Part shown: positions 3,281-17,505 of the stretch, piece after piece | Layout: every line of letters begins with the position of its first letter | How positions within the stretch are numbered: the first letter of the stretch is position 1 | Origin: an uncultured virus (IMG/VR IMGVR_UViG_3300027969_000088) | Taxonomy: Duplodnaviria; Heunggongvirae; Uroviricota; Caudoviricetes | DNA: 20,000 nucleotides | Strand: one strand, 5' to 3' | Virus record (IMG/VR): IMGVR_UViG_3300027969_000088 | Notes under the pieces: generated by a model | Databases searched by the model: none | Told to the model about the DNA's origin: nothing | The model's input: only the letters and a program-made list of their open reading frames with translations | Made by a program: the position numbers and the translations under genes

Positions 3281-3703
3281 ATGTCTAGGAAAAGAGATAG
3301 TAAATATGACGATGCCTACCAACTTTATTTAGATGGTATGTCATTACAGCAAGTTGCTAGTTCTATTAGTGTTACGAGACAATGTGTTTTCAAAGCATTT
3401 AAAAAAAGAAATTTTATTCTGAGAACTCCTAATTTTCAACCTCATCAGTATTTTGATGGTCATAAATTTTCTCTTAGAAATCATGGTTATTACGAAAAAA
3501 CTACCGGTAATAGAGAATTGATGCATCGTTATGTTTGGGAAAAACACAATGGTCCAATTCTTGAAAAACATGACATACATCACAAGAATCATGATAGAAG
3601 TGATAATAGAATTGAAAATTTAGAAATGCTTGGCCATAAAGAACACGCTAAAAAATACGCAACAGGAAATAACCAATATACAAAGAAAAATGATTCACTT
3701 TAG
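3281..3703 (+). CDS. HNH homing endonuclease with N-terminal HTH
   Basis: MHRYVWEKHNGPI...IHHKNHDRSDNRIENLE (HNH_3-like); N-terminal GMSLQQVASSISVTRQCV HTH. Confidence 0.9.
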   Translation: MSRKRDSKYDDAYQLYLDGMSLQQVASSISVTRQCVFKAFKKRNFILRTPNFQPHQYFDGHKFSLRNHGYYEKTTGNRELMHRYVWEKHNGPILEKHDIHHKNHDRSDNRIENLEMLGHKEHAKKYATGNNQYTKKNDSL

Positions 3704-4757
3704 TTTATTTTCTGGCATAGGAGGATTTGATCTTGCTTCTGAGTGGATGGGATGGAAAAACTATTTAAGTTGTGACATCAATCCATTTAGTAAAAAAATC
3801 TGTGAATTCTATTGGCCAGAGGCTTATCATCATGATAATATTAAAACATTAAATTATGAAACAATTAACATTGAACTTTCAAGGAGATTCGGAAGCCACT
3901 GGAGAAATGAGGACATTATCCTCACCGGTGGCTTCCCGTGACCATGTCAACCCTTCAGTACCGCTGGAAAAAGGATGGGAAAAGAAGATGATCGCCATCT
4001 TTGGCCCTATATGCTCCAAGCAATCAAAGACATTAGACCAAGATATGTCGTGGGGGAAAATGTTCGTGGACTCCTTAGTTGGTCGGACGGATTGGTTCTC
4101 GAAGAGGTCTACGCTGATTTGGAAGGTGAGGGATACGAAATCCAAACGTTTGTACTTCCAGCTGTCGGCATCAATGCACCACACAAACGGGACAGGGTCT
4201 GGATTATTGCTAAAAACACCAGCAGCGATGGACGGGTACAGCGAGAACTTAACGAAGAAGGAACAAGTATTCGGAAATTCGGGGACACTGGCTCAAGAAG
4301 TAGCAACGGGGTTCATATACAAGAGGGGGATGATACCAACACCAATAGCCGGGGATTGGAAGGGTCAATTGAGATCGGACGGAACAGCGAATATGTTGAG
4401 CGGAAAAGCGACATTGGGATTACTGCCGACACCGAACAGTTACGATTGGAACACAGCAGCGAAGCCTGGGACGTATTTGGCTCGATCACAGAGGCACAAG
4501 GACAAGAACGTAAATCTCCAAATGAGTCTAAGACAGATGACAATGTTTATACCGAACAAGGTGGACCATCCGAAGCTTGGGACTGCTTCCCAATTAAATC
4601 CCCACTTTGTAGCGGAGATGATGGGCTTCCCAACGAATTGGACGGACTTACCTTTCCTAAGTGGAGAAAAGAAAGTATAATGGGATATGGCAACGCCATT
4701 GTTCCTCAGATTGCTTACCGTATATTTGCAACCATAAATGAACTCGAAAATAGATAA
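3690..4757 (+). CDS. DNA (cytosine-5) methyltransferase, large (alpha) chain, with in-frame TGA at 3939-3941
   Basis: One frame from ATG 3690: motif I SLFSGIGG, motif IV GGFP*PCQPFS, VI ENV, VIII APHKRDRVW, X GNAIVPQ. ORFs 3630..3941 and 3975..4757 share this frame and are separated by a single TGA. Confidence 0.85.
3856..4680 (+). CDS. Methyltransferase beta chain (target-recognition region plus motif IX) nested in the +1 frame
   Basis: 274-aa open frame inside the alpha gene; AATT-ATG start as in other genes here; repeated (L)PTP units; motif IX-like LNPHFVAEMMGFPTNWT, which the alpha frame lacks. Confidence 0.8.
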   Translation: MKQLTLNFQGDSEATGEMRTLSSPVASRDHVNPSVPLEKGWEKKMIAIFGPICSKQSKTLDQDMSWGKMFVDSLVGRTDWFSKRSTLIWKVRDTKSKRLYFQLSASMHHTNGTGSGLLLKTPAAMDGYSENLTKKEQVFGNSGTLAQEVATGFIYKRGMIPTPIAGDWKGQLRSDGTANMLSGKATLGLLPTPNSYDWNTAAKPGTYLARSQRHKDKNVNLQMSLRQMTMFIPNKVDHPKLGTASQLNPHFVAEMMGFPTNWTDLPFLSGEKKV

Positions 4758-5049
4758 GAAGCAGTATCTCAGATACATGAAGACATTTGTCTGGGCTATT
4801 AAGAAAGATACTGTTTCTTTGGCCGATGCAGCTGAGAAGAGAGTAATGATTAACTATCCAGTGGATGCAACTACGGTAGAAGATGCCATTAACTTTGTAG
4901 AAACGGGTGAGGGCCTCAGAGATACCAATGTCTCCACCACAGACCTATATGCTATGATGGAAGCAATGAAACATTTACAAATTAAGGAAGAACCTAAAGT
5001 AGAAGAAAAACCAAAAAGAAAAAGAATTAAGAAAAATGACAGCAAATAA
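4738..5049 (+). CDS. Hypothetical protein
   Basis: Operonic ORF overlapping both neighbours; basic C-terminus. Confidence 0.65.
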   Translation: MNSKIDKKQYLRYMKTFVWAIKKDTVSLADAAEKRVMINYPVDATTVEDAINFVETGEGLRDTNVSTTDLYAMMEAMKHLQIKEEPKVEEKPKRKRIKKNDSK

Positions 5050-5377
5050 ATTTATTGGGTTACTATTACATAGTAGAGATGCGATGCATTTAGCCCATTG
5101 GAACACAAAATCTTTTTCAGAGCATGATGCATTGAATAAGTACTACGATGGTATACTTGAATTAACAGACGAGTTTACTGAAGTATTGTTTGGTCAAAAA
5201 GGACGTTTAGATATTTCTGTACCAGAAGTAGAAATAGAAGAACCTGTAGAGCACCTTACAGACTTTAGAGATATTGTTGAAAATGAAAGAGATAATTATT
5301 CTACTAATCTTCAGAATACTCTAGACGAAGTACTTTCTTTAATTGACCAAACACTATACAGACTAACACTTAAATAA
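5036..5377 (+). CDS. Ferritin/Dps-like four-helix phage protein
   Basis: HLAHWNTKSFSEHDALNKYYD...DEFTE...G and LQN..DE...LI..T.Y.L patterns. Confidence 0.7.
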   Translation: MTANKFIGLLLHSRDAMHLAHWNTKSFSEHDALNKYYDGILELTDEFTEVLFGQKGRLDISVPEVEIEEPVEHLTDFRDIVENERDNYSTNLQNTLDEVLSLIDQTLYRLTLK

Positions 5378-5378
5378 T

Positions 5379-5672
5379 ATGGAAAGTAATTATAAAGTAA
5401 GGGGTCTCAGAGTTCTATTAACTCCACCCCTAATTGTAAAATCTGCTATACAACTAGATGCAAAACTAGAGGAGCAGATAATGGATGAGCAAATGAAAAA
5501 ATGGGGCTCACTAGAAGTATTTGCTGTAGGTGATGAAGTAAATGATATTTCAGCAGGGGATAGAGTTTATGTCAATCCTATGTTCTTAAGAAATTCTGAA
5601 CACGTGTTAATTGATGGGGAGGATAAGATAATTGTTCGTGCTCCGGATATTGCTGTGATTTGGTATAAATAA
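5379..5672 (+). CDS. groES: GroES-like co-chaperonin
   Basis: RVLL...EVFAVG.EV..I.AGDRVY...IDGE...IVR..DI. Confidence 0.75.
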   Translation: MESNYKVRGLRVLLTPPLIVKSAIQLDAKLEEQIMDEQMKKWGSLEVFAVGDEVNDISAGDRVYVNPMFLRNSEHVLIDGEDKIIVRAPDIAVIWYK

Positions 5673-5685
5673 TTAAAAGAAATTA

Positions 5686-5799
5686 GCCCCGTTGGCCAGG
5701 GGATCGTAAAATACAGATCGGCATTTTAACAATGCCCAAGACATCTGTTCTCATCGTATAGGAGATAGGGTTAGCCTTCCCGACATCGTCTAAAAAGGC
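5686..5799 (+). ncRNA. Multi-hairpin structured RNA of unknown family
   Basis: Consecutive stems CCCC/GGGG, GATC/GATC, GGCATT/AATGCC, CTGTTCTC/GAGATAG and GCCTT/AAGGC; no ORF. Confidence 0.45.
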
Positions 5800-5805
5800 A
5801 AACAT

Positions 5806-5880
5806 AGTCAGGTGGATTAATATGGTAAATCATTCAATGGGAAACTGTTGAAAGATACAGGTTCGAATCCTGTCCGACTA
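5806..5880 (+). ncRNA. tRNA-like RNA 1 (anticodon loop replaced by GAAA tetraloop)
   Basis: Acceptor AGTCAGG/CC-GACT, D arm GATT/AATC with GG loop, stem TTCAATGG-GAAA-CTGTTGAA, T arm ACAGG-TTCGAAT-CCTGT. Confidence 0.75.
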
Positions 5881-6020
5881 CACCGGTAATGGGAAGGAAG
5901 CCCACGTTAAACTAAACCGTTGGAGGCTGTCGAGCCTTATGGATCGGTGTACCTAGATGTAAAATTGGTGCTATTGGTCTCTGAAGAATAGGGAACACGG
6001 GTAACTGCAAGATAAGTTAC
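5880..6020 (+). ncRNA. Structured spacer RNA between tRNA-like elements
   Basis: Closing stem ACACCGGT/ATCGGTGT (5880-5950) encloses TGGG/CCCA and GAGGCT/AGCCTT hairpins; then CTATT/AATAG and GTAACT/AGTTAC hairpins. Confidence 0.45.
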
Positions 6021-6025
6021 AAAAT

Positions 6026-6100
6026 AGGTGCATTGATCGTTTAGCGGTTAAGACATATCGTAAGATAAGACGCAGGTTCGAATCCTGGGTAGGTGCACCT
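6026..6100 (+). ncRNA. tRNA-like RNA 2 (anticodon arm reduced to 4 bp plus GTAA tetraloop)
   Basis: AGGTGCA/TGCACCT terminal stem, D arm GTTT-AGCGGTTA-AGAC, TATC-GTAA-GATA, T arm CAGG-TTCGAAT-CCTG. Confidence 0.7.
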
Positions 6101-6105
6101 TAAAT

Positions 6106-6231
6106 CGGAGAGTGGCGGAAGGTTAGGGGTAACCCTGACGTGTTAGACGCTGCTAGCTAAATATAGCAATTTGGGATTAGCCCTCTAACCATAGAGTGCC
6201 CAAAATACAGGTTAGAGTCCTGTCTCTCTGA
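6106..6231 (+). ncRNA. tRNA-like RNA 3 (expanded, with a hairpin inserted in the D loop)
   Basis: Acceptor CGGAGAG/CTCTCTG; D stem GCG/CGC containing GTTAGGG-GTAA-CCCTGAC; TGCTA/TAGCA arm with an 8-nt loop; long variable arm; T arm ACAGG-TTAGAGT-CCTGT. Confidence 0.65.
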
Positions 6232-6315
6232 CAAACAACAAAGGGGCATCAATGTCCCTCTGTATACATAATATCAGTTCAAACCTGACAAATAAACTAT
6301 GAAAGCAATATTAGA

Positions 6316-6939
6316 ATGATTGGAATTTATAAAATAGTATCTCCAATAGGTAGAGTATATGTAGGACAATCTACAAATATAGAAAAAAGATGGAATCACT
6401 ATAGATCACTAGACTGTAAGGACCAACAAAAAATATATAATTCTTTTGTTAAGTACGGGGTTTGTAGTCATATTTTTTTAATAATTGAAGAGTGTGATGT
6501 TAGCGATTTGAACGAAAGAGAAAGATATTGGCAAGAATATTACGATGTTGTAAAAAAAGGATTAAATTGCAAAATGGTTTTTACAAATGAAAAATCTGGT
6601 TTTTTATGCGAAGAAACAAAGAAAAAAATAAGCAAAGCAAATAAAGGAAGATCTAATAGAAAGAATTATAACCATTCAGAAGAAACAAAGAGAAAAATAA
6701 GTGAAGCCAATAAAGGAAAAAAAGCAACTGGTTTTTTAGGAAATCACTCAGAAGAAACAAAAAGAAAAATAAGTGAAGCCAATAAAGGAAGAATTGTTTC
6801 TGACGAACACAAATTAAAATTATCATTAGCAGCTATTGGAAGGCCAAGCAAGTTAAAAGGTAGAATTTTTACAGAAGAAGAAAGAAAAACAATGTATTCA
6901 ACAAGGAAAAAAATAAAAAATATATGCAAGCTCAATTAA
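6316..6939 (+). CDS. GIY-YIG homing endonuclease with NUMOD3 repeats
   Basis: GIYKI...YVGQS..I..RW..Y; RERYW; repeated HSEETKRKISEANKG. Confidence 0.93.
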   Translation: MIGIYKIVSPIGRVYVGQSTNIEKRWNHYRSLDCKDQQKIYNSFVKYGVCSHIFLIIEECDVSDLNERERYWQEYYDVVKKGLNCKMVFTNEKSGFLCEETKKKISKANKGRSNRKNYNHSEETKRKISEANKGKKATGFLGNHSEETKRKISEANKGRIVSDEHKLKLSLAAIGRPSKLKGRIFTEEERKTMYSTRKKIKNICKLN

Positions 6940-7148
6940 CCTTCAATCTTCCAGAAGACCACACAGATTTTGAAGATGCTGTCAATGGACAGAGATGGTC
7001 TTTAGCAATGTGGGAACTAGATCAACACCTTCGGTCTCAGACTAAACATCCTCCAGAAGGAATGTCAGATGATACATGGAAGGCATTAGATGATACTAGA
7101 GAGAAACTATATGAGATACTAAATGAAAACGCCCTTAAGCTCAGATAG
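6924..7148 (+). CDS. Conserved small phage hypothetical protein (FNLPED family)
   Basis: LTFNLPED..DF..A.NG..W....W.LDQ.LR. Confidence 0.75.
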   Translation: MQAQLTFNLPEDHTDFEDAVNGQRWSLAMWELDQHLRSQTKHPPEGMSDDTWKALDDTREKLYEILNENALKLR

Positions 7149-7168
7149 AGCAAACAAAAGACACTAAA

Positions 7169-7683
7169 GTAAACCTATAGGCTTATGTTTGATTTTTGTG
7201 ATTTTTTCACAATAAAGTGCATTATAAGGAACAAAACAATACATTTAAGGAACTTTTATGACACATTAAGGAAGATTAGTGCTTTTTAAGGCACTTTTCT
7301 TTGTTCACGAAATCGTGTACATAAATGAATAGTGAACAATAAGGTCTCAGACTTATATTGAGTATTTATAAGGTAATGACCTAATATCTGGTATTGCGAT
7401 ATGCGATATTATATCTCCTAGGGTATATATAAAAAGCCTTGACATAAAAATATCTCATATTGCGATATTATACCTTTTAGGGTATAGATAATTTACTCCA
7501 GTATGTTTTTATTACCGATAGGGTATAATTGTGCAATATATCATACATTAACTCGGTTTTTTACCGATAAGGAGTAATATATCATACGTACGATGATTAC
7601 GTACACTTCGTAACGAACTATTCGTAATGATAAAAAAGTTTAGTTTTACTTTAGTCGGTCTCGAAATTTACCGAGGTGAGACC
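7169..7683. repeat. Array of diverse, mostly duplicated imperfect palindromes (operator-like)
   Basis: About 10 motif families, most present in 2-4 adjacent copies; listed in findings. Confidence 0.65.
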
Positions 7684-7695
7684 AAAAAATTTTTA

Positions 7696-7840
7696 GTGGG
7701 GGTTACAAAACTTTACAAATAAATACACGGGGGTTAAAAACAAGCCCCCCCCTTCTGTTAAAACTTGTGCGAGGTGTGAAGGTGATACGTTCCGAAAAGT
7801 CAGGTTGCCACCCAAAAAAAATATCCCCCCCTTTTTCCCT
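7696..7840. other. G/C homopolymer-rich segment, candidate genome terminus or packaging site
   Basis: G5 7698-7702, G5 7729-7733, C8 7745-7752 and A8-TAT-C7-T5 7814-7836 in AT-rich non-coding DNA, upstream of IHF-like sites and the small-gene cluster. Confidence 0.35.
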
Positions 7841-8004
7841 ATCTCGAAGCAAATAACTGATTGATTATCAATAACTTAACAGCCTAAATTGAATTAATTT
7901 GAACACAAAAAACGTATTCGCACTACTTAACTGATTGATATGCAATGAATTAAAATGTTCACACTCGTTCGATTGTGTACACTATCAATAAGTTAACTGC
8001 TCTA

Positions 8005-8404
8005 TTTAGAATTATTCTAAACAAAGCTCTTGCGTACACACGCACACACACACGCCTACACGTGCGCACATACACGCACCCTGGCGCACACACACGCACG
8101 TTATAGGGATTTTTTACCACTTCAGCAAATTTATTTGCTATTTATAATTATTCTAAATTACTTTGAATATTTTTTTATTTGAATTTTTTTGCCTATGCGC
8201 ATACACACGCACTCGCTGGTGCACACACGTACGCACGTTAACGGTTATTTTACTCACAATTGCAAATTTATTTTTTGCTATTTGATATCGATTATTTATT
8301 TTATTTGTTTAAACGAACAAAAATATTTTTAAAATTTATTTAATTGATTATCAATAACTTATAATTTATTTTACATTTTTTTTTAAATTCATAATGATTC
8401 TAAA
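8005..8404. promoter_or_regulatory. Three Fur/PerR-like inverted-repeat boxes
   Basis: TTTAGAATTATTCTAAA 8005-8021 (perfect 8-1-8), TTTATAATTATTCTAAA 8141-8157, TTCATAATGATTCTAAA 8388-8404. Confidence 0.5.
8031..8283. repeat. Alternating purine-pyrimidine (CA/CG) tracts within a degenerate ~80-90 bp direct repeat
   Basis: GCGCA.A.ACACGCAC..CTGG.GCACACAC..CGCACGTTA...GCAAATTTATTT(TTT)GCTATTT at about 8064-8143 and 8197-8283. Confidence 0.8.
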
Positions 8405-8583
8405 TAACATAATTATTTTATTGATTATCAGTAACTTACATTTTACATTTTTTTGCTAACTCATTGATAATCAACTATGTTTACCTATCGTTTCAAAAAA
8501 TTGCCTTGTAACTCATTGACTATCAATACCCTTTTGTTATAACTAATTGTTTATCAGTAACTTACGATTAAATTTTTGTGTTG

Positions 8584-8591
8584 TATGTTTG
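8584..8591 (+). promoter_or_regulatory. Putative early promoter -7 element
   Basis: TATGTTTG fits TAnnTTTG, right after the IHF-like array; no clean -33 TTTG at canonical spacing. Confidence 0.5.
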
Positions 8592-8619
8592 CATCGTTGG
8601 TTTAACACACTAACAACTT

Positions 8620-9051
8620 CAAATCACGTTTGCATAAAGTGTTTACACTACACAACGTGAGATTTATAAAAGCAGTAATAAAAACTGTTTTTTGTGAGAT
8701 GTGGACTCAAAGAAAAAATACCATTGGTGACGTAAAATCTATGTGCAAACGTAGTCCTACCTAAGTGGACGGGCATCCCTCTTGTGACCAAGTCAAAAAT
8801 GAGGGTGTATAATCGTGTAGCGTCCGAGTAATCGGGGAACGCCCGTGTTATATGCTTTCTTGAGGGGACTATAAGAAAACAGAGAGAAAACTGTTTTTGT
8901 GTAAGTGGCGTATAACTACGTCCTATTAGTCTATGATGGTTCAACCACTTCAATGTGAGAAACCTAAAAAATAATGTGCCGTAAAAACTACCTTGTTATA
9001 CATAAAGTTTGACATTGTATGTAGGTAACCTCGTGAGGTTAACAAGGTAGC
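8620..9051 (+). ncRNA. Large structured RNA or leader of unknown family
   Basis: No plus-strand ORF in the track; many nested stems, including 11-bp CTACCTTGTTA/TAACAAGGTAG, ACGGGC/GCCCGT and CCGA-GTAA-TCGG. Confidence 0.55.
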
Positions 9052-9065
9052 AAACTTTTAAACAT

Positions 9066-9455
9066 ATGAAAAACACACAAATCAAAATCGAAAACAACGG
9101 GACGTTCATCAAGTTTGACCTTGACACTAACAACACTAAAGACAACAACAAAGTAAGGCGAGCTTTAGTGTATCGTTTCTTTGACTATTACAACACTATG
9201 CGAGTACTGGGGGCAAAAGGTTTCAAGGGGAACGAGCCTTTTGTAGTCACTATTTTAATTGACGGGCAGTTACAATTTACGTCTGCAAATTTAACGACTC
9301 AAGTACAAACAAGGCTTAAGTTAATTAATAACCCAAAAGGTAGGGAACGTTTCGACTTCGCATTGGATACTATTATCGCAATGGCACAACGTTTCGAGAG
9401 TACAAATGTTGATGCAATTATCAAAGATGTTGCGACTCGTTTGTTAGAAGCATAA
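9066..9455 (+). CDS. Hypothetical protein, first gene of the putative early region
   Basis: 129-aa ORF with A-rich leader, followed by a terminator. Confidence 0.8.
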   Translation: MKNTQIKIENNGTFIKFDLDTNNTKDNNKVRRALVYRFFDYYNTMRVLGAKGFKGNEPFVVTILIDGQLQFTSANLTTQVQTRLKLINNPKGRERFDFALDTIIAMAQRFESTNVDAIIKDVATRLLEA

Positions 9456-9475
9456 TTTATCCTTACTATCTATTC

Positions 9476-9507
9476 ACCCCTATGGTAATTATCATAGGGG
9501 TTTTTTT
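9476..9507 (+). terminator. Rho-independent terminator
   Basis: ACCCCTATGGT-AATT-ATCATAGGGG followed by T7. Confidence 0.85.
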
Positions 9508-9578
9508 ATGTCTATAAATATGGACAGTCAAAAACAATCATCAACACTCACCAGGCTTAGTCTGTATTAGCAAGTCTA

Positions 9579-9630
9579 TGTAAATTCACAAATCGGTGTG
9601 CCGTACGTTCGAGTCGTACATTTACAGCCA
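9579..9630 (+). ncRNA. 52-nt mini-tRNA lacking the entire anticodon arm, with encoded CCA
   Basis: TGTAAAT/ATTTACA 7-bp acceptor, CAC-AAATCGGT-GTG D arm, CC linker, GTACG-TTCGAGT-CGTAC T arm, G-CCA end. Confidence 0.75.
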
Positions 9631-9654
9631 AAACAAAAATCTAAACATACAATT

Positions 9655-9840
9655 ATGAGTCTAAAAAATCAAAGTCTAATTATGACCTTTTTAGGTCTTG
9701 CACTATCAGTCTTATTGATAGCCGTGTCTTATCACTTTTCCTTACCAAATTGGGTAGAATACTTAGGGGCATTTTGCTTTTTTGTATTTGTAGTCGTGCT
9801 GTGTTTTGAAATGTATATCGATGATACTTATAAAAAATAA
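9655..9840 (+). CDS. Small two-TM membrane protein
   Basis: AATT-ATG start at 9655 (MSLKNQ), because the track's GTG 9598 lies inside the mini-tRNA; two hydrophobic stretches. Confidence 0.7.
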   Translation: MSLKNQSLIMTFLGLALSVLLIAVSYHFSLPNWVEYLGAFCFFVFVVVLCFEMYIDDTYKK

Positions 9841-9844
9841 AACT

Positions 9845-10141
9845 ATGAAACAAATCACACAACAAGCAGTCGGAGCTTTTATGAATGCACAACCATTCAA
9901 AAGAGACAACACACAAGTAAAAGTATTACCAAACGTAACAATCTTGTCACTATTCGGTAATGATATTGCTTACCTATACAACGATCCAGAACGCACTTTA
10001 AGTATCACCAATTGTGGTTGGTTCTCCAAGACAACAAAAGAACGTCTTAATGGTATACCGAATGTAAACATCTCTCAAAAGAAAGGCGAGTGGTATTTAA
10101 ATGGTGTACTATGGAATGGTGGAGTAACTGATATAAAATAA
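9845..10141 (+). CDS. Conserved phage hypothetical protein
   Basis: MKQITQQAV.AF...LFGN.IA...GW.S.TTKERLN; AAACT-ATG start. Confidence 0.8.
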   Translation: MKQITQQAVGAFMNAQPFKRDNTQVKVLPNVTILSLFGNDIAYLYNDPERTLSITNCGWFSKTTKERLNGIPNVNISQKKGEWYLNGVLWNGGVTDIK

Positions 10142-15864: not shown

Positions 15865-16238
15865 CAACTATAATTAATAAACTAAAAGACATGGGTTATA
15901 TAGTATATAACCCTTACAACAATTCATTAGAGAGACCTCGATACATTGTACCTTTAAATGAATTTGACACAGAAGAAATTGATAAACTAACCGTGGAATT
16001 ATATATCGATAGTTTAGAGTTAATCAAAAAAGAATTACCGGATGAATATGGCACGATTAAAAACTTTAAGCAACATTTATTCTTTGACATAAATGCCGAT
16101 GGTTCGTTTTATGAATGGACTTGTGATTTGGCTTATGAGTGTATAGATGATGCGATTGCTGTTGCTCGTGAATTAAACATCGAAGAAATATGGGATTGTG
16201 ACGATGGCACTAATATATATGTAGATGAAACAGATTGA
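15861..16238 (+). CDS. Acidic hypothetical protein
   Basis: Operonic ORF with ATGA overlap. Confidence 0.7.
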   Translation: MTTIINKLKDMGYIVYNPYNNSLERPRYIVPLNEFDTEEIDKLTVELYIDSLELIKKELPDEYGTIKNFKQHLFFDINADGSFYEWTCDLAYECIDDAIAVARELNIEEIWDCDDGTNIYVDETD

Positions 16239-16509
16239 TGCATTTGTACCAAAAGAAATTTATGATGACTTTGTTAAGAAACACAAAACACATAAAGGCG
16301 CATTAGATTATTTATCTATAGCATTAGAACATAGAATTACTGCACAAAGATATTTAATCAATCGTGATTTGATTACGCAAGTAAATCATATTAAAATTAA
16401 TATACCAATCAAAGAACATTTAGTTCCTTATTTGAATGAATATTGTTTGATTAAAGGTATTACTAAACAAGAACTATTAGTTAAAATTATGTTAAAAAGA
16501 AGAGTATGA
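16225..16509 (+). CDS. Hypothetical protein, possible ribbon-helix-helix C-terminus
   Basis: KINIPIKEHLVPYLNEYCLIKGITKQELL; ATGA-coupled to the recombinase. Confidence 0.55.
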   Translation: MKQIDAFVPKEIYDDFVKKHKTHKGALDYLSIALEHRITAQRYLINRDLITQVNHIKINIPIKEHLVPYLNEYCLIKGITKQELLVKIMLKRRV

Positions 16510-17210
16510 AAGCAATAGGATACATTAGAGTAAGTACTGATATGCAAGCTGACAAAGGTACATCACTCGATAACCAAGTAGCAAGAATCAAAGAGTACGC
16601 CCAGCAAAAAGGATTTATACTAGAAAATATTTTCGAAGATGCTGGTTATAGTGGAAAAAATACCAAGAGACCTGGCTTCCAAGCAATGTTTAGTCGACTA
16701 AGACAAGGAGGTATCAATGCTGTCATCGTATGGCATAGCACTCGTTTCGCCCGTAACCTCAAGGATAACATTGTACATATGGCAGAACTTGAGCAAAGAA
16801 AGATTAAGTTCTACTCCATTGAAGAACCTATGATGTCTGGCTCCAGTGGTAAGGCTATGAGAAATCTTATGGCTGTGTTTGCCGAGTATCAATCTGATGT
16901 TACTGGCGAGTATACACGTAGTGTAAAAAGTAACCTTAAGAAAAATCAAAAAGTCTATTGTGCTTATCCTCCCCTTGGTTTTGTTAATCAAGATGGAGTG
17001 ATGATCCGAGACCCAAACGCTTTTAAAATTGTAGATGAAATACAAGTGATGCATTCACAAGGATTATCACTACGTAAAATTGCTCAACACTTTAATACTC
17101 AAGGAATTAAAGGTAACAAAAATGGAAAATTTCATGCAAGTACAATACAAAAAATATTAAACAACAACATTTATGATTTATATAGAAACAAAACAACAGA
17201 CACACAATAA
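16506..17210 (+). CDS. Serine recombinase (resolvase catalytic domain plus short recombinase/HTH domain)
   Basis: GYIRVST (catalytic Ser), D.G.SG...RPG, TRFARN, PLGF, G.SLR.IA..N. Confidence 0.93.
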   Translation: MKAIGYIRVSTDMQADKGTSLDNQVARIKEYAQQKGFILENIFEDAGYSGKNTKRPGFQAMFSRLRQGGINAVIVWHSTRFARNLKDNIVHMAELEQRKIKFYSIEEPMMSGSSGKAMRNLMAVFAEYQSDVTGEYTRSVKSNLKKNQKVYCAYPPLGFVNQDGVMIRDPNAFKIVDEIQVMHSQGLSLRKIAQHFNTQGIKGNKNGKFHASTIQKILNNNIYDLYRNKTTDTQ

Positions 17211-17505
17211 GAATCTAATATTAGAAACTATCGAAGAGGTTATCGGTGTACCTCGTGAACTTTGGGAAATCAAAAGAAGCCGTTCTACTGAAGAAGTATT
17301 TATCAGAGATATCTATATCTATATGCTATACACTTATGCTGATATTACATTTCAAAACATATCACGTATCGTTGGTTTAAAAAATCACGCCAGTGCTGTT
17401 CAATCAGTTAATAAGATAAAGAAATGGTTAGATAATCCTACTGAATACACAATCAAACTTAAATTAATTAATGAAATATTTAAAAGATATGAAGATGCAA
17501 GATAA
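17173..17505 (+). CDS. DnaA C-terminal-like HTH protein
   Basis: RSR..E.V..R.I..Y.......F..I...G..NHASA...V.KI pattern of DnaA domain IV. Confidence 0.7.
   Translation: MIYIETKQQTHNKNLILETIEEVIGVPRELWEIKRSRSTEEVFIRDIYIYMLYTYADITFQNISRIVGLKNHASAVQSVNKIKKWLDNPTEYTIKLKLINEIFKRYEDAR

Follow-up and report, generated by a model that had tools for sequence, protein, structure and literature searches.

A non-coding array in phage DNA contains motif families that match operators of Bacteroidota toxin-antitoxin operons

The window (the whole stretch of 20,000 nucleotides that was analysed) is phage DNA, with genes for a recombination exonuclease, HNH and GIY-YIG nucleases, methyltransferases and a serine recombinase. 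A complete relative of 67.6 kb, G005, has genes for a portal protein, a DNA polymerase, a primase-helicase and a ribonucleotide reductase; its capsid and portal proteins have no match among 50,697 GenBank phage records. We infer that the host is a Bacteroidota species, because of the operator matches described below and because one of the sites (F5) is shared with four Cellulophaga phages. The following features define the locus.

5036..5377, + strand: DUF5856 ferritin-like gene, here 1.8 kb upstream of the array
6924..7148, + strand: 74-aa ORF that belongs to no recognised family and lies ahead of the array in each of the six phages, used as a context marker
7169..7686, no strand: non-coding operator array, whole element, with homologous arrays in five relatives (L001-L005)

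The array at 7169-7686 is real. It contains no ORF of at least 50 aa, and the motifs that a first-pass annotation had listed in it are found where that annotation placed them. A contig from another study (run X3) matches positions 7335-7526 without any difference and, because this independent run covers the stretch identically, the array is not an assembly artefact. The annotation had also proposed that the density of palindrome pairs be compared with that of shuffled sequence, and here the outcome depends on the setting. When arms of 6 or longer and a single mismatch are allowed, there are 17 palindromes, as against 8.7 +/- 2.9 in 200 dinucleotide shuffles (one of which reached 17), and 46 near-identical 10-mer pairs within 120 bp, as against 5.9 +/- 3.8 with a maximum of 17 in 100 shuffles. 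However, at the loosest palindrome setting (arm 7, two mismatches), the excess is not significant (11 versus 8.1, reached by 32 of 200 shuffles). The 515-bp tiles starting at 7726 and 8241 have more direct-repeat pairs than the array (66 and 79), formed by a different repeat. With E values up to 1 allowed, an Rfam scan of 5600-9700 gave no match within the array. Two candidate identities were rejected: an RNA mimic of the Pseudo-ToxI type, given that there is no Rfam match and that the matches are to promoter DNA; and a hip or abiE promoter proper, given that no ORF follows and that no cognate homologue occurs in the window or in five phage records.

Five of the approximately ten motif families match operators of Bacteroidota toxin-antitoxin operons, and roughly half of all families lack a host counterpart in the sequences searched. 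We consider the host palindromes to be the putative cognate operators on the basis of their position upstream of the genes. The sites of the five matching families are as follows.

7215..7234, no strand: F3 site 1, matching a tripartite hipB-hipS-hipT subfamily with 60-61-bp spacing; 20.9 bits, the window's best
7277..7296, no strand: F3 site 2, 62 bp after site 1; 19.8 bits
7302..7338, no strand: F4, a sequence match to three of the four AbiEi_2 (PF09952) operator half-sites, at offsets 0, 13 and 30
7384..7409, no strand: F5 site 1, doubled heptamer form; matches PDC-M21A winged-helix operators, mostly before AbiEii-like genes
7409..7428, no strand: F6 site in the spacer of the F5 pair; 14.5 bits
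7450..7468, no strand: F5 site 2, 66 bp after 7384; 25.0 bits
7468..7487, no strand: F6 pair, site 1, matching a tripartite hipB-hipS-hipT operator; 24.3 bits (host median 23.2)
7509..7528, no strand: F6 pair, site 2, 41 bp after 7468; 16.4 bits
7528..7549, no strand: F7 site 1, a weak copy of a bipartite hipBA (about 115 + 435 aa) operator; 12.6 bits (host median 18.1)
7569..7590, no strand: F7 site 2, 41 bp after 7528; 12.9 bits

The site pairs are interleaved, with an F6 site inside the F5 spacer and a degenerate F6 site inside the F7 spacer, and most of the phage copies have one degenerate arm.

Exact F6 matches occur four times in 201 genomes, and two of the four are promoters of operons encoding a helix-turn-helix protein, Couple_hipA and HipA_C. 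This layout is the tripartite layout of hipBST, as set out in the accessible part of PMC8262856. Couple_hipA is present in 91 of the 201 genomes; among the 30 best Couple_hipA loci, 22 have at least two F6 sites, compared with no F6 site in any of 30 coding controls, and 41 of the 43 intervals between host sites are 40-41 bp. A profile derived from the hosts ranks 7468, 7509 and 7409 as the top positions in the 20-kb window. Of the four F6 copies that had been claimed, the fourth (7558) is weak. The 41-bp pair is also present in G005 and G207.

For F7, a site of this type is found in 15 of 18 bipartite hipBA promoters versus none of 18 controls, and seven of the 18 promoters have a pair 40-41 bp apart. 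In the window, both copies fall short of the host median, and a coding site at 9880 scores as high. Pairs at 41 bp nevertheless occur in the window, G005, G006, G207 and G208, with site sequences that differ in the relatives.

Two host loci carry F3 sites before hipB, one with intervals of 61 and 61 bp (L360) and the other with 60 and 60 bp (L391), so that the 62 bp of the window deviates by 1 bp; the argument for F3 has a circular element, because L360 was found by its resemblance to the phage. The F3 consensus had one match in 201 genomes versus two for a reversed control, the F3 tandem pattern had one match in metagenomes, a low-complexity repeat, and the sole yield of a plasmid BLAST search was an F3 match in intergenic Pseudoalteromonas DNA that has no neighbouring regulator gene. 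The first-pass annotation had counted four copies of F3, of which those at 7215 and 7277 score as F3 and the other two do not; the stretch between the two sites aligns with an F7-type module of the relatives. The relatives have at most one copy of F3. By eye, Bacteroidota hip promoters (upstream of L315-L403) show several operator subfamilies with fixed periods of 40-41 or 60-61 bp, and some phage sites resemble hybrids of the half-sites of two hip subfamilies.

A search of 185,579 genomes gave 43 places with a perfect F4 palindrome, near a rough chance estimate of 35. However, 13 of the 43 places have extra half-sites 10-11 bp away, and at 8 of these 13 loci there is an AbiEi_2 gene (six with E <0.001, two with E of 0.001-0.002), whereas none of the seven tested loci that lack extra half-sites has one. 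AbiEi_2 is present in 26 of 201 Bacteroidota genomes, and in 17 of the 26 promoters half-sites follow each other at 12-13 and then 16-17 bp; in the window, the distances are 13 and then 17. The host operator consists of four half-sites at 17, 12-13 and 16-17 bp, and the window lacks the first. F4 sites were also seen outside of arrays, at G208:22398 and G006:36311, where the last half-site lies on the start codon of a small phage gene.

The F5 pattern is found in 31 of 201 genomes, versus 11 for a reversed control. This count is likely inflated by a codon effect, as F5-like matches recur in the coding sequence of similar genes (L090, L095, L096, L097, L099 and L077, the last being ORF6N). The doubled form occurs in 6 of the 30 loci that were read. 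Three of these six lie upstream of a gene for a winged-helix protein that PADLOC places in the candidate defence family PDC-M21A (E 3e-45 or better), and the gene after it is AbiEii-like in two cases and GmrSD/NsnA-like in one; the other three lie before an unknown ORF, before a PDC-S01 ATPase and near a hip locus. In the three PDC-M21A promoters, which are all the host loci on which the spacing rests, F5 pairs are 65-66 bp apart, and the distance is 66 bp in both the window and G207. Within the window's array, the best-scoring F5 spacing is 59 bp, with 66 bp second, because the window's second site has a shorter form; G207 has both sites in full, and G005 has lost the second. When the upstream regions of 28 AbiEii loci were read, they had inverted repeats other than those of the array's families.

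The pair scores at the host spacing for F3, F5, F6 and F7 were each reached by none of 1000 shuffles, F4 scored 29.0 bits compared with a shuffle maximum of 16.8, and pair scores elsewhere in the window are at most 2 bits, as against 12.6-19.8 in the array. It is important to consider that these shuffle tests are lenient, because the seeds of the F5, F6 and F7 profiles were written with the phage in view. The spacings are stronger and independent evidence, because those of F4-F7 were not chosen from the phage. Phage and host spacings compare as 41 versus 40-41 bp for F6, 41 versus 40-41 bp for F7, 66 versus 65-66 bp for F5, 62 versus 60-61 bp for F3 and, between F4 half-sites, 13/17 versus 12-13/16-17 bp. 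The suggestion that the array contains operators of host XRE regulators (HipB) and of antitoxin-type regulators (AbiEi, PDC-M21A) is supported for several families at the level of sequence.

The remaining families, along with a promoter-like box, are listed here.

7170..7185, no strand: F1 palindrome, single copy, kept at the array start in relatives
7185..7192, + strand: match to the consensus of the Bacteroidota -7 promoter box, pointing into the array
7195..7213, no strand: F2 palindrome; a single host copy, located where an AbiLi-like ATPase gene begins (L263)
7340..7384, no strand: F1 pair (7340, 7369), 29 bp apart in all six phages
7585..7627, no strand: F8 (7585) and overlapping F9 (7597, 7611) repeats, kept in G005 and G207
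7656..7684, no strand: F10 inverted repeat with a long spacer, absent from G005, G006, G207 and G208

The box at 7185..7192 is the only one of its kind in the array and is present in L001-L005. The F1 tandem pattern was found in 1 of 151 genomes versus 9 for a control, and an F1 profile run over 150 genomes, with 41 candidates scored in each, gave seven matches, none of them operator-like. In the one genome with the tandem pattern (L169), the F1 sites are separated by 28 bp and lie roughly 200 bp ahead of a hipB gene, with no regulator gene of their own. None of the families was recognised as an operator of a C protein or of a restriction-modification system, but we regard F1 as a candidate C-protein box of restriction-modification systems. 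The genome scan for F2 was at the level of chance (3 of 161 genomes versus 4 for the control), and no F2 site was seen by eye before 20 AAA_21 genes. F9 was found in 5 of 161 genomes versus 4 for the control, always inside ORFs, and nothing closely resembling F8, F9 or F10 was found in 253 host loci (733 kb).

A relative of the 74-aa ORF is present at 22 loci. The five closest (L001-L005, 84-93% identity) carry the array in the same place, while for the remaining 17 loci there is no array among the matches listed. Modules have been gained, lost or exchanged among the arrays of L001-L005, as the first-pass annotation had anticipated for related phages. In L001 (4342-5040), L002 and L004, the array is interrupted by a gene of 232 aa, whose product weakly matches a helix-turn-helix.

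On balance, we lean towards the view that the phage carries a docking array, which would hold antitoxins or toxin-antitoxin complexes and thereby protect the antitoxin from proteolysis, derepress the operons or both, with the toxins neutralised. This would be a form of counter-defence that needs no protein, in which phage DNA copies the autoregulatory operators of several toxin-antitoxin or abortive-infection operons. The proposal starts from the five families that, by sequence comparison, match host operators and keep the geometry from site to site. Given the behaviour described for HipB and AbiEi, host antitoxins, alone or together with toxins, would then bind the array, and this binding would be far more extensive after replication, when many phage copies face one to four host operators per operon. 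Antitoxin bound to DNA may resist Lon, toxin-antitoxin complexes may stay docked on the phage DNA, and titration may free the host promoter to make more antitoxin, so that toxins that block translation would stay neutralised. Many families together could cover the patchy toxin-antitoxin content of different host strains.

Several published observations bear on this proposal. Operator DNA slows the degradation of HipB by Lon, giving a half-life above 200 min (passages of PMC3376134), and HipBST or HipBT is repressive at lower levels than is HipB by itself, according to the available text of PMC10627512. HipA dimerises within promoter complexes with distinct operator spacing, as cited in PMC7029023. 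AbiEi represses abiE via inverted repeats (excerpts of PMC3985639), and one report describes, in its accessible sections, an AbiEi-AbiEii heterodimer whose DNA-binding residues are left exposed, and puts forward a T7 protein that would hold Lon and thereby block a related system (10.64898/2026.01.19.700257). Against docking, S. oneidensis HipB shows no cooperativity between operators in the part of PMC4150777 that is available. The same sections of 10.64898/2026.01.19.700257 report that AbiE of S. agalactiae had no effect against phages when tested in E. coli, and we found no demonstration that HipBA or HipBST stops a phage in those portions of the literature that were accessible.

It might instead be supposed that the array is a sensor or control region, in which bound antitoxins repress a phage promoter, at the 7185-7192 box or at the 3' end of the array, and downstream phage genes switch on when the antitoxins vanish under stress or infection. 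This is the alternative that survives best, although we consider it unlikely. The -7-like box at the array start is conserved, the array ends directly before a DUF5856 ferritin-like gene in four of five relatives, and in G006 and G208 a small phage gene begins within the F4 site, in the manner of host operons. However, the gene after the array differs among relatives, and in the window all five pairs are intact though no gene follows for about 1.4 kb. Moreover, a 500-bp stack of ten families far exceeds the need of one promoter, and any single occupied family would mask the others.

It is distinctly improbable that the array loads host DNA-binding proteins for a structural purpose (as a roadblock, for shielding or for positioning), with toxin control incidental. 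A roadblock could stop read-through into the terminus or the early region, and in the window and G005 the array closes the block of rightward middle genes, with a G/C-tract region and the early genes coming next. This position is not kept in G006, G208 and L003, where further genes come after the array; the proximity to the genome end that the annotation had assumed is thus not conserved. In addition, all five assigned families belong to patchy toxin-antitoxin or candidate defence operons, which would be a poor choice for a general coat.

Titration by the phage could also turn host toxins on, which, at a late stage of infection, might reduce host translation or keep out superinfecting phages. 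The sequestration of AbiEi on viral DNA has been proposed, on a speculative basis and against docking, to activate the AbiEii toxin (sections of 10.64898/2026.01.19.700257), and the array may, judging from gene order, lie in late-entering DNA. We nonetheless consider this very improbable, since toxins of the HipA, HipT and AbiEii types block the translation that the phage needs, and since operator DNA stabilises HipB in vitro (passages of PMC3376134). Still less probable is that the sites are relics, i.e., fragments of host promoters gained by recombination and decaying without function. A captured fragment would bring the host spacing automatically, degeneration is common among the copies and the relatives have gained and lost modules. 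However, the spacers are occupied by sites of other families instead of host spacer DNA, there is no remnant of a cognate gene, 41-bp pairs persist in G006 and G208 with different site sequences, and the unrelated viral contigs L225 and L229 carry an F5 core and an F6 pair (at 41 bp) side by side. Least probable of all is that the sites are operators of the phage's own regulators, an idea that could still apply to F1, F2, F8, F9 and F10: the window encodes possible small DNA-binding proteins (a DnaA_C-like helix-turn-helix protein at 17173-17505 and a weakly RepB-regulator-like one at 16225-16509), but F1, F2, F9 and F10 score best inside the array without strong recurrence elsewhere in three complete relatives and one partial relative, and when 11 host regulator or toxin proteins, HipB, AbiEi and PDC-M21A among the families concerned, were compared with the window and five phage records, no homologue emerged (best E 0.005).

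Returning to operator mimicry, we looked at how far it extends among viral contigs. A perfect F6 site is present at 14 viral loci, 11 of which have a second site at 41 bp, and hip genes lie within 800 bp at one of the 14. Six of the 11 pairs belong to one homologous gene family in which the second site is mostly weak, and four are non-coding with no hip genes within 800 bp. The coding F6 pair (position 801) was seen in L244, L245, L248, L251, L254 and L257, and L244 is a uracil-DNA glycosylase. The F5 core is found at 65 viral loci, 53 of them distinct and 22 overlapping an ORF of at least 120 aa; a second F5 site at 66 bp is found at one of the 53 distinct loci (G207). A search for a combined F5 and F6 pattern returned no viral contigs, and one for a combined F6 and F7 pattern returned G005 only. 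It is quite possible, though we would place it a little short of probable, that phages of Bacteroidota mimic operators widely, as a counter-defence that needs no protein, carrying interleaved toxin-antitoxin operators at native spacing, even in coding sequence, on which complexes would assemble and stay inactive. The F5 core was also observed in intergenic DNA of the cultured Cellulophaga phages phi10:1, phi19:1, phi19:3 and phi46:3 (L066-L069), in phi19:3 twice, within a duplicated promoter-like segment.

The array can be compared with several known systems. The hipBA and hipBST operator regions of E. coli and S. oneidensis likewise have palindromic operators repeated at fixed spacing, bound by XRE-family HipB alone or with the kinase toxin (parts of PMC3376134, PMC4150777, PMC10627512 and PMC8262856). 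The array differs in that it lies on a phage, with no hip genes and no host promoter between the sites, and its sites would come from at least three HipB subfamilies, unlike those of one hip operator region. Similarly, the inverted repeats of the type IV abiE promoter (excerpts of PMC3985639) resemble F4 and F5 in being winged-helix antitoxin sites upstream of AbiEi/AbiEii-like operons, but F4 and F5 belong to other sequence families (PF09952 and PADLOC PDC-M21A), and the phage copy is without one of the four F4 half-sites and without all of the genes. The Pseudo-ToxI repeats of phage phiTE, as described in portions of PMC3475682 and PMC3594212, are also non-coding repeats that copy the nucleic-acid part of a host toxin-antitoxin system. 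However, they mimic an RNA antitoxin of one type III system, whereas the array consists of double-stranded operator DNA related to several type II and IV systems. T4 TifA, ICP1 Gp145, orphan DarG-like antitoxins and T7 Gp4.5 (accessible sections of PMC13728456 and 10.64898/2026.01.19.700257) share with the array the presumed goal of keeping a toxin neutralised. All of these are, by those same accounts, proteins, and an operator DNA mimic is not mentioned there, while the array is operator DNA.

Phage DNA containing true sites for host regulators is already known, e.g., the Spo0A boxes of phi29 and sites for LexA and DtxR. Those sites serve global regulators and nearby phage promoters, in contrast to the array, which relates to autoregulated toxin-antitoxin operons and has no gene after it in the window. 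To our knowledge, phages have so far been found to counter toxin-antitoxin defence with proteins or with mimics of RNA antitoxins, and in the main texts of literature outside subscription journals we found no phage operator decoy against toxin-antitoxin systems. An operator-DNA mimic would therefore be a new route of counter-defence that is invisible to gene-based annotation, and the array would represent a new class if binding and protection were shown. The array also provides indirect evolutionary evidence that HipBA, HipBST, AbiEi_2 and PDC-M21 matter in phage infection of Bacteroidota, and it makes a standing question testable, namely whether these toxins are set off in infected cells by operator DNA being lost or gained. 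If operator mimicry is true, each array would be a readable record of host toxin-antitoxin systems that are active against phages, including HipBA, HipBST and PDC-M21, and F1, F2, F8, F9 and F10 would point to further defence regulators. The Cellulophaga phages that have the F5 site offer a laboratory model.

Some further observations concern the neighbourhood of the array. Tracts of G and C homopolymers at 7690-7850, likewise seen after the array in G005, are a candidate genome end. At 7853-8565, in a gene-free stretch before the early genes, there are at least six copies of a 26-nt palindromic repeat, together with CA-rich repeats at 8032-8243; these are possibly early promoters or sites for phage or host proteins. 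Upstream of the array, a DNA methyltransferase is split over 3630-3941 and 3975-4757, and a 274-aa ORF in another frame (3856-4680) overlaps both parts. A tRNA for which a four-base anticodon was called lies at 5805-5881, with a weak second tRNA-like match at 6030-6097 and more remnants within 5805-6240, and this tRNA region is followed by a GIY-YIG homing endonuclease gene at 6316-6939.
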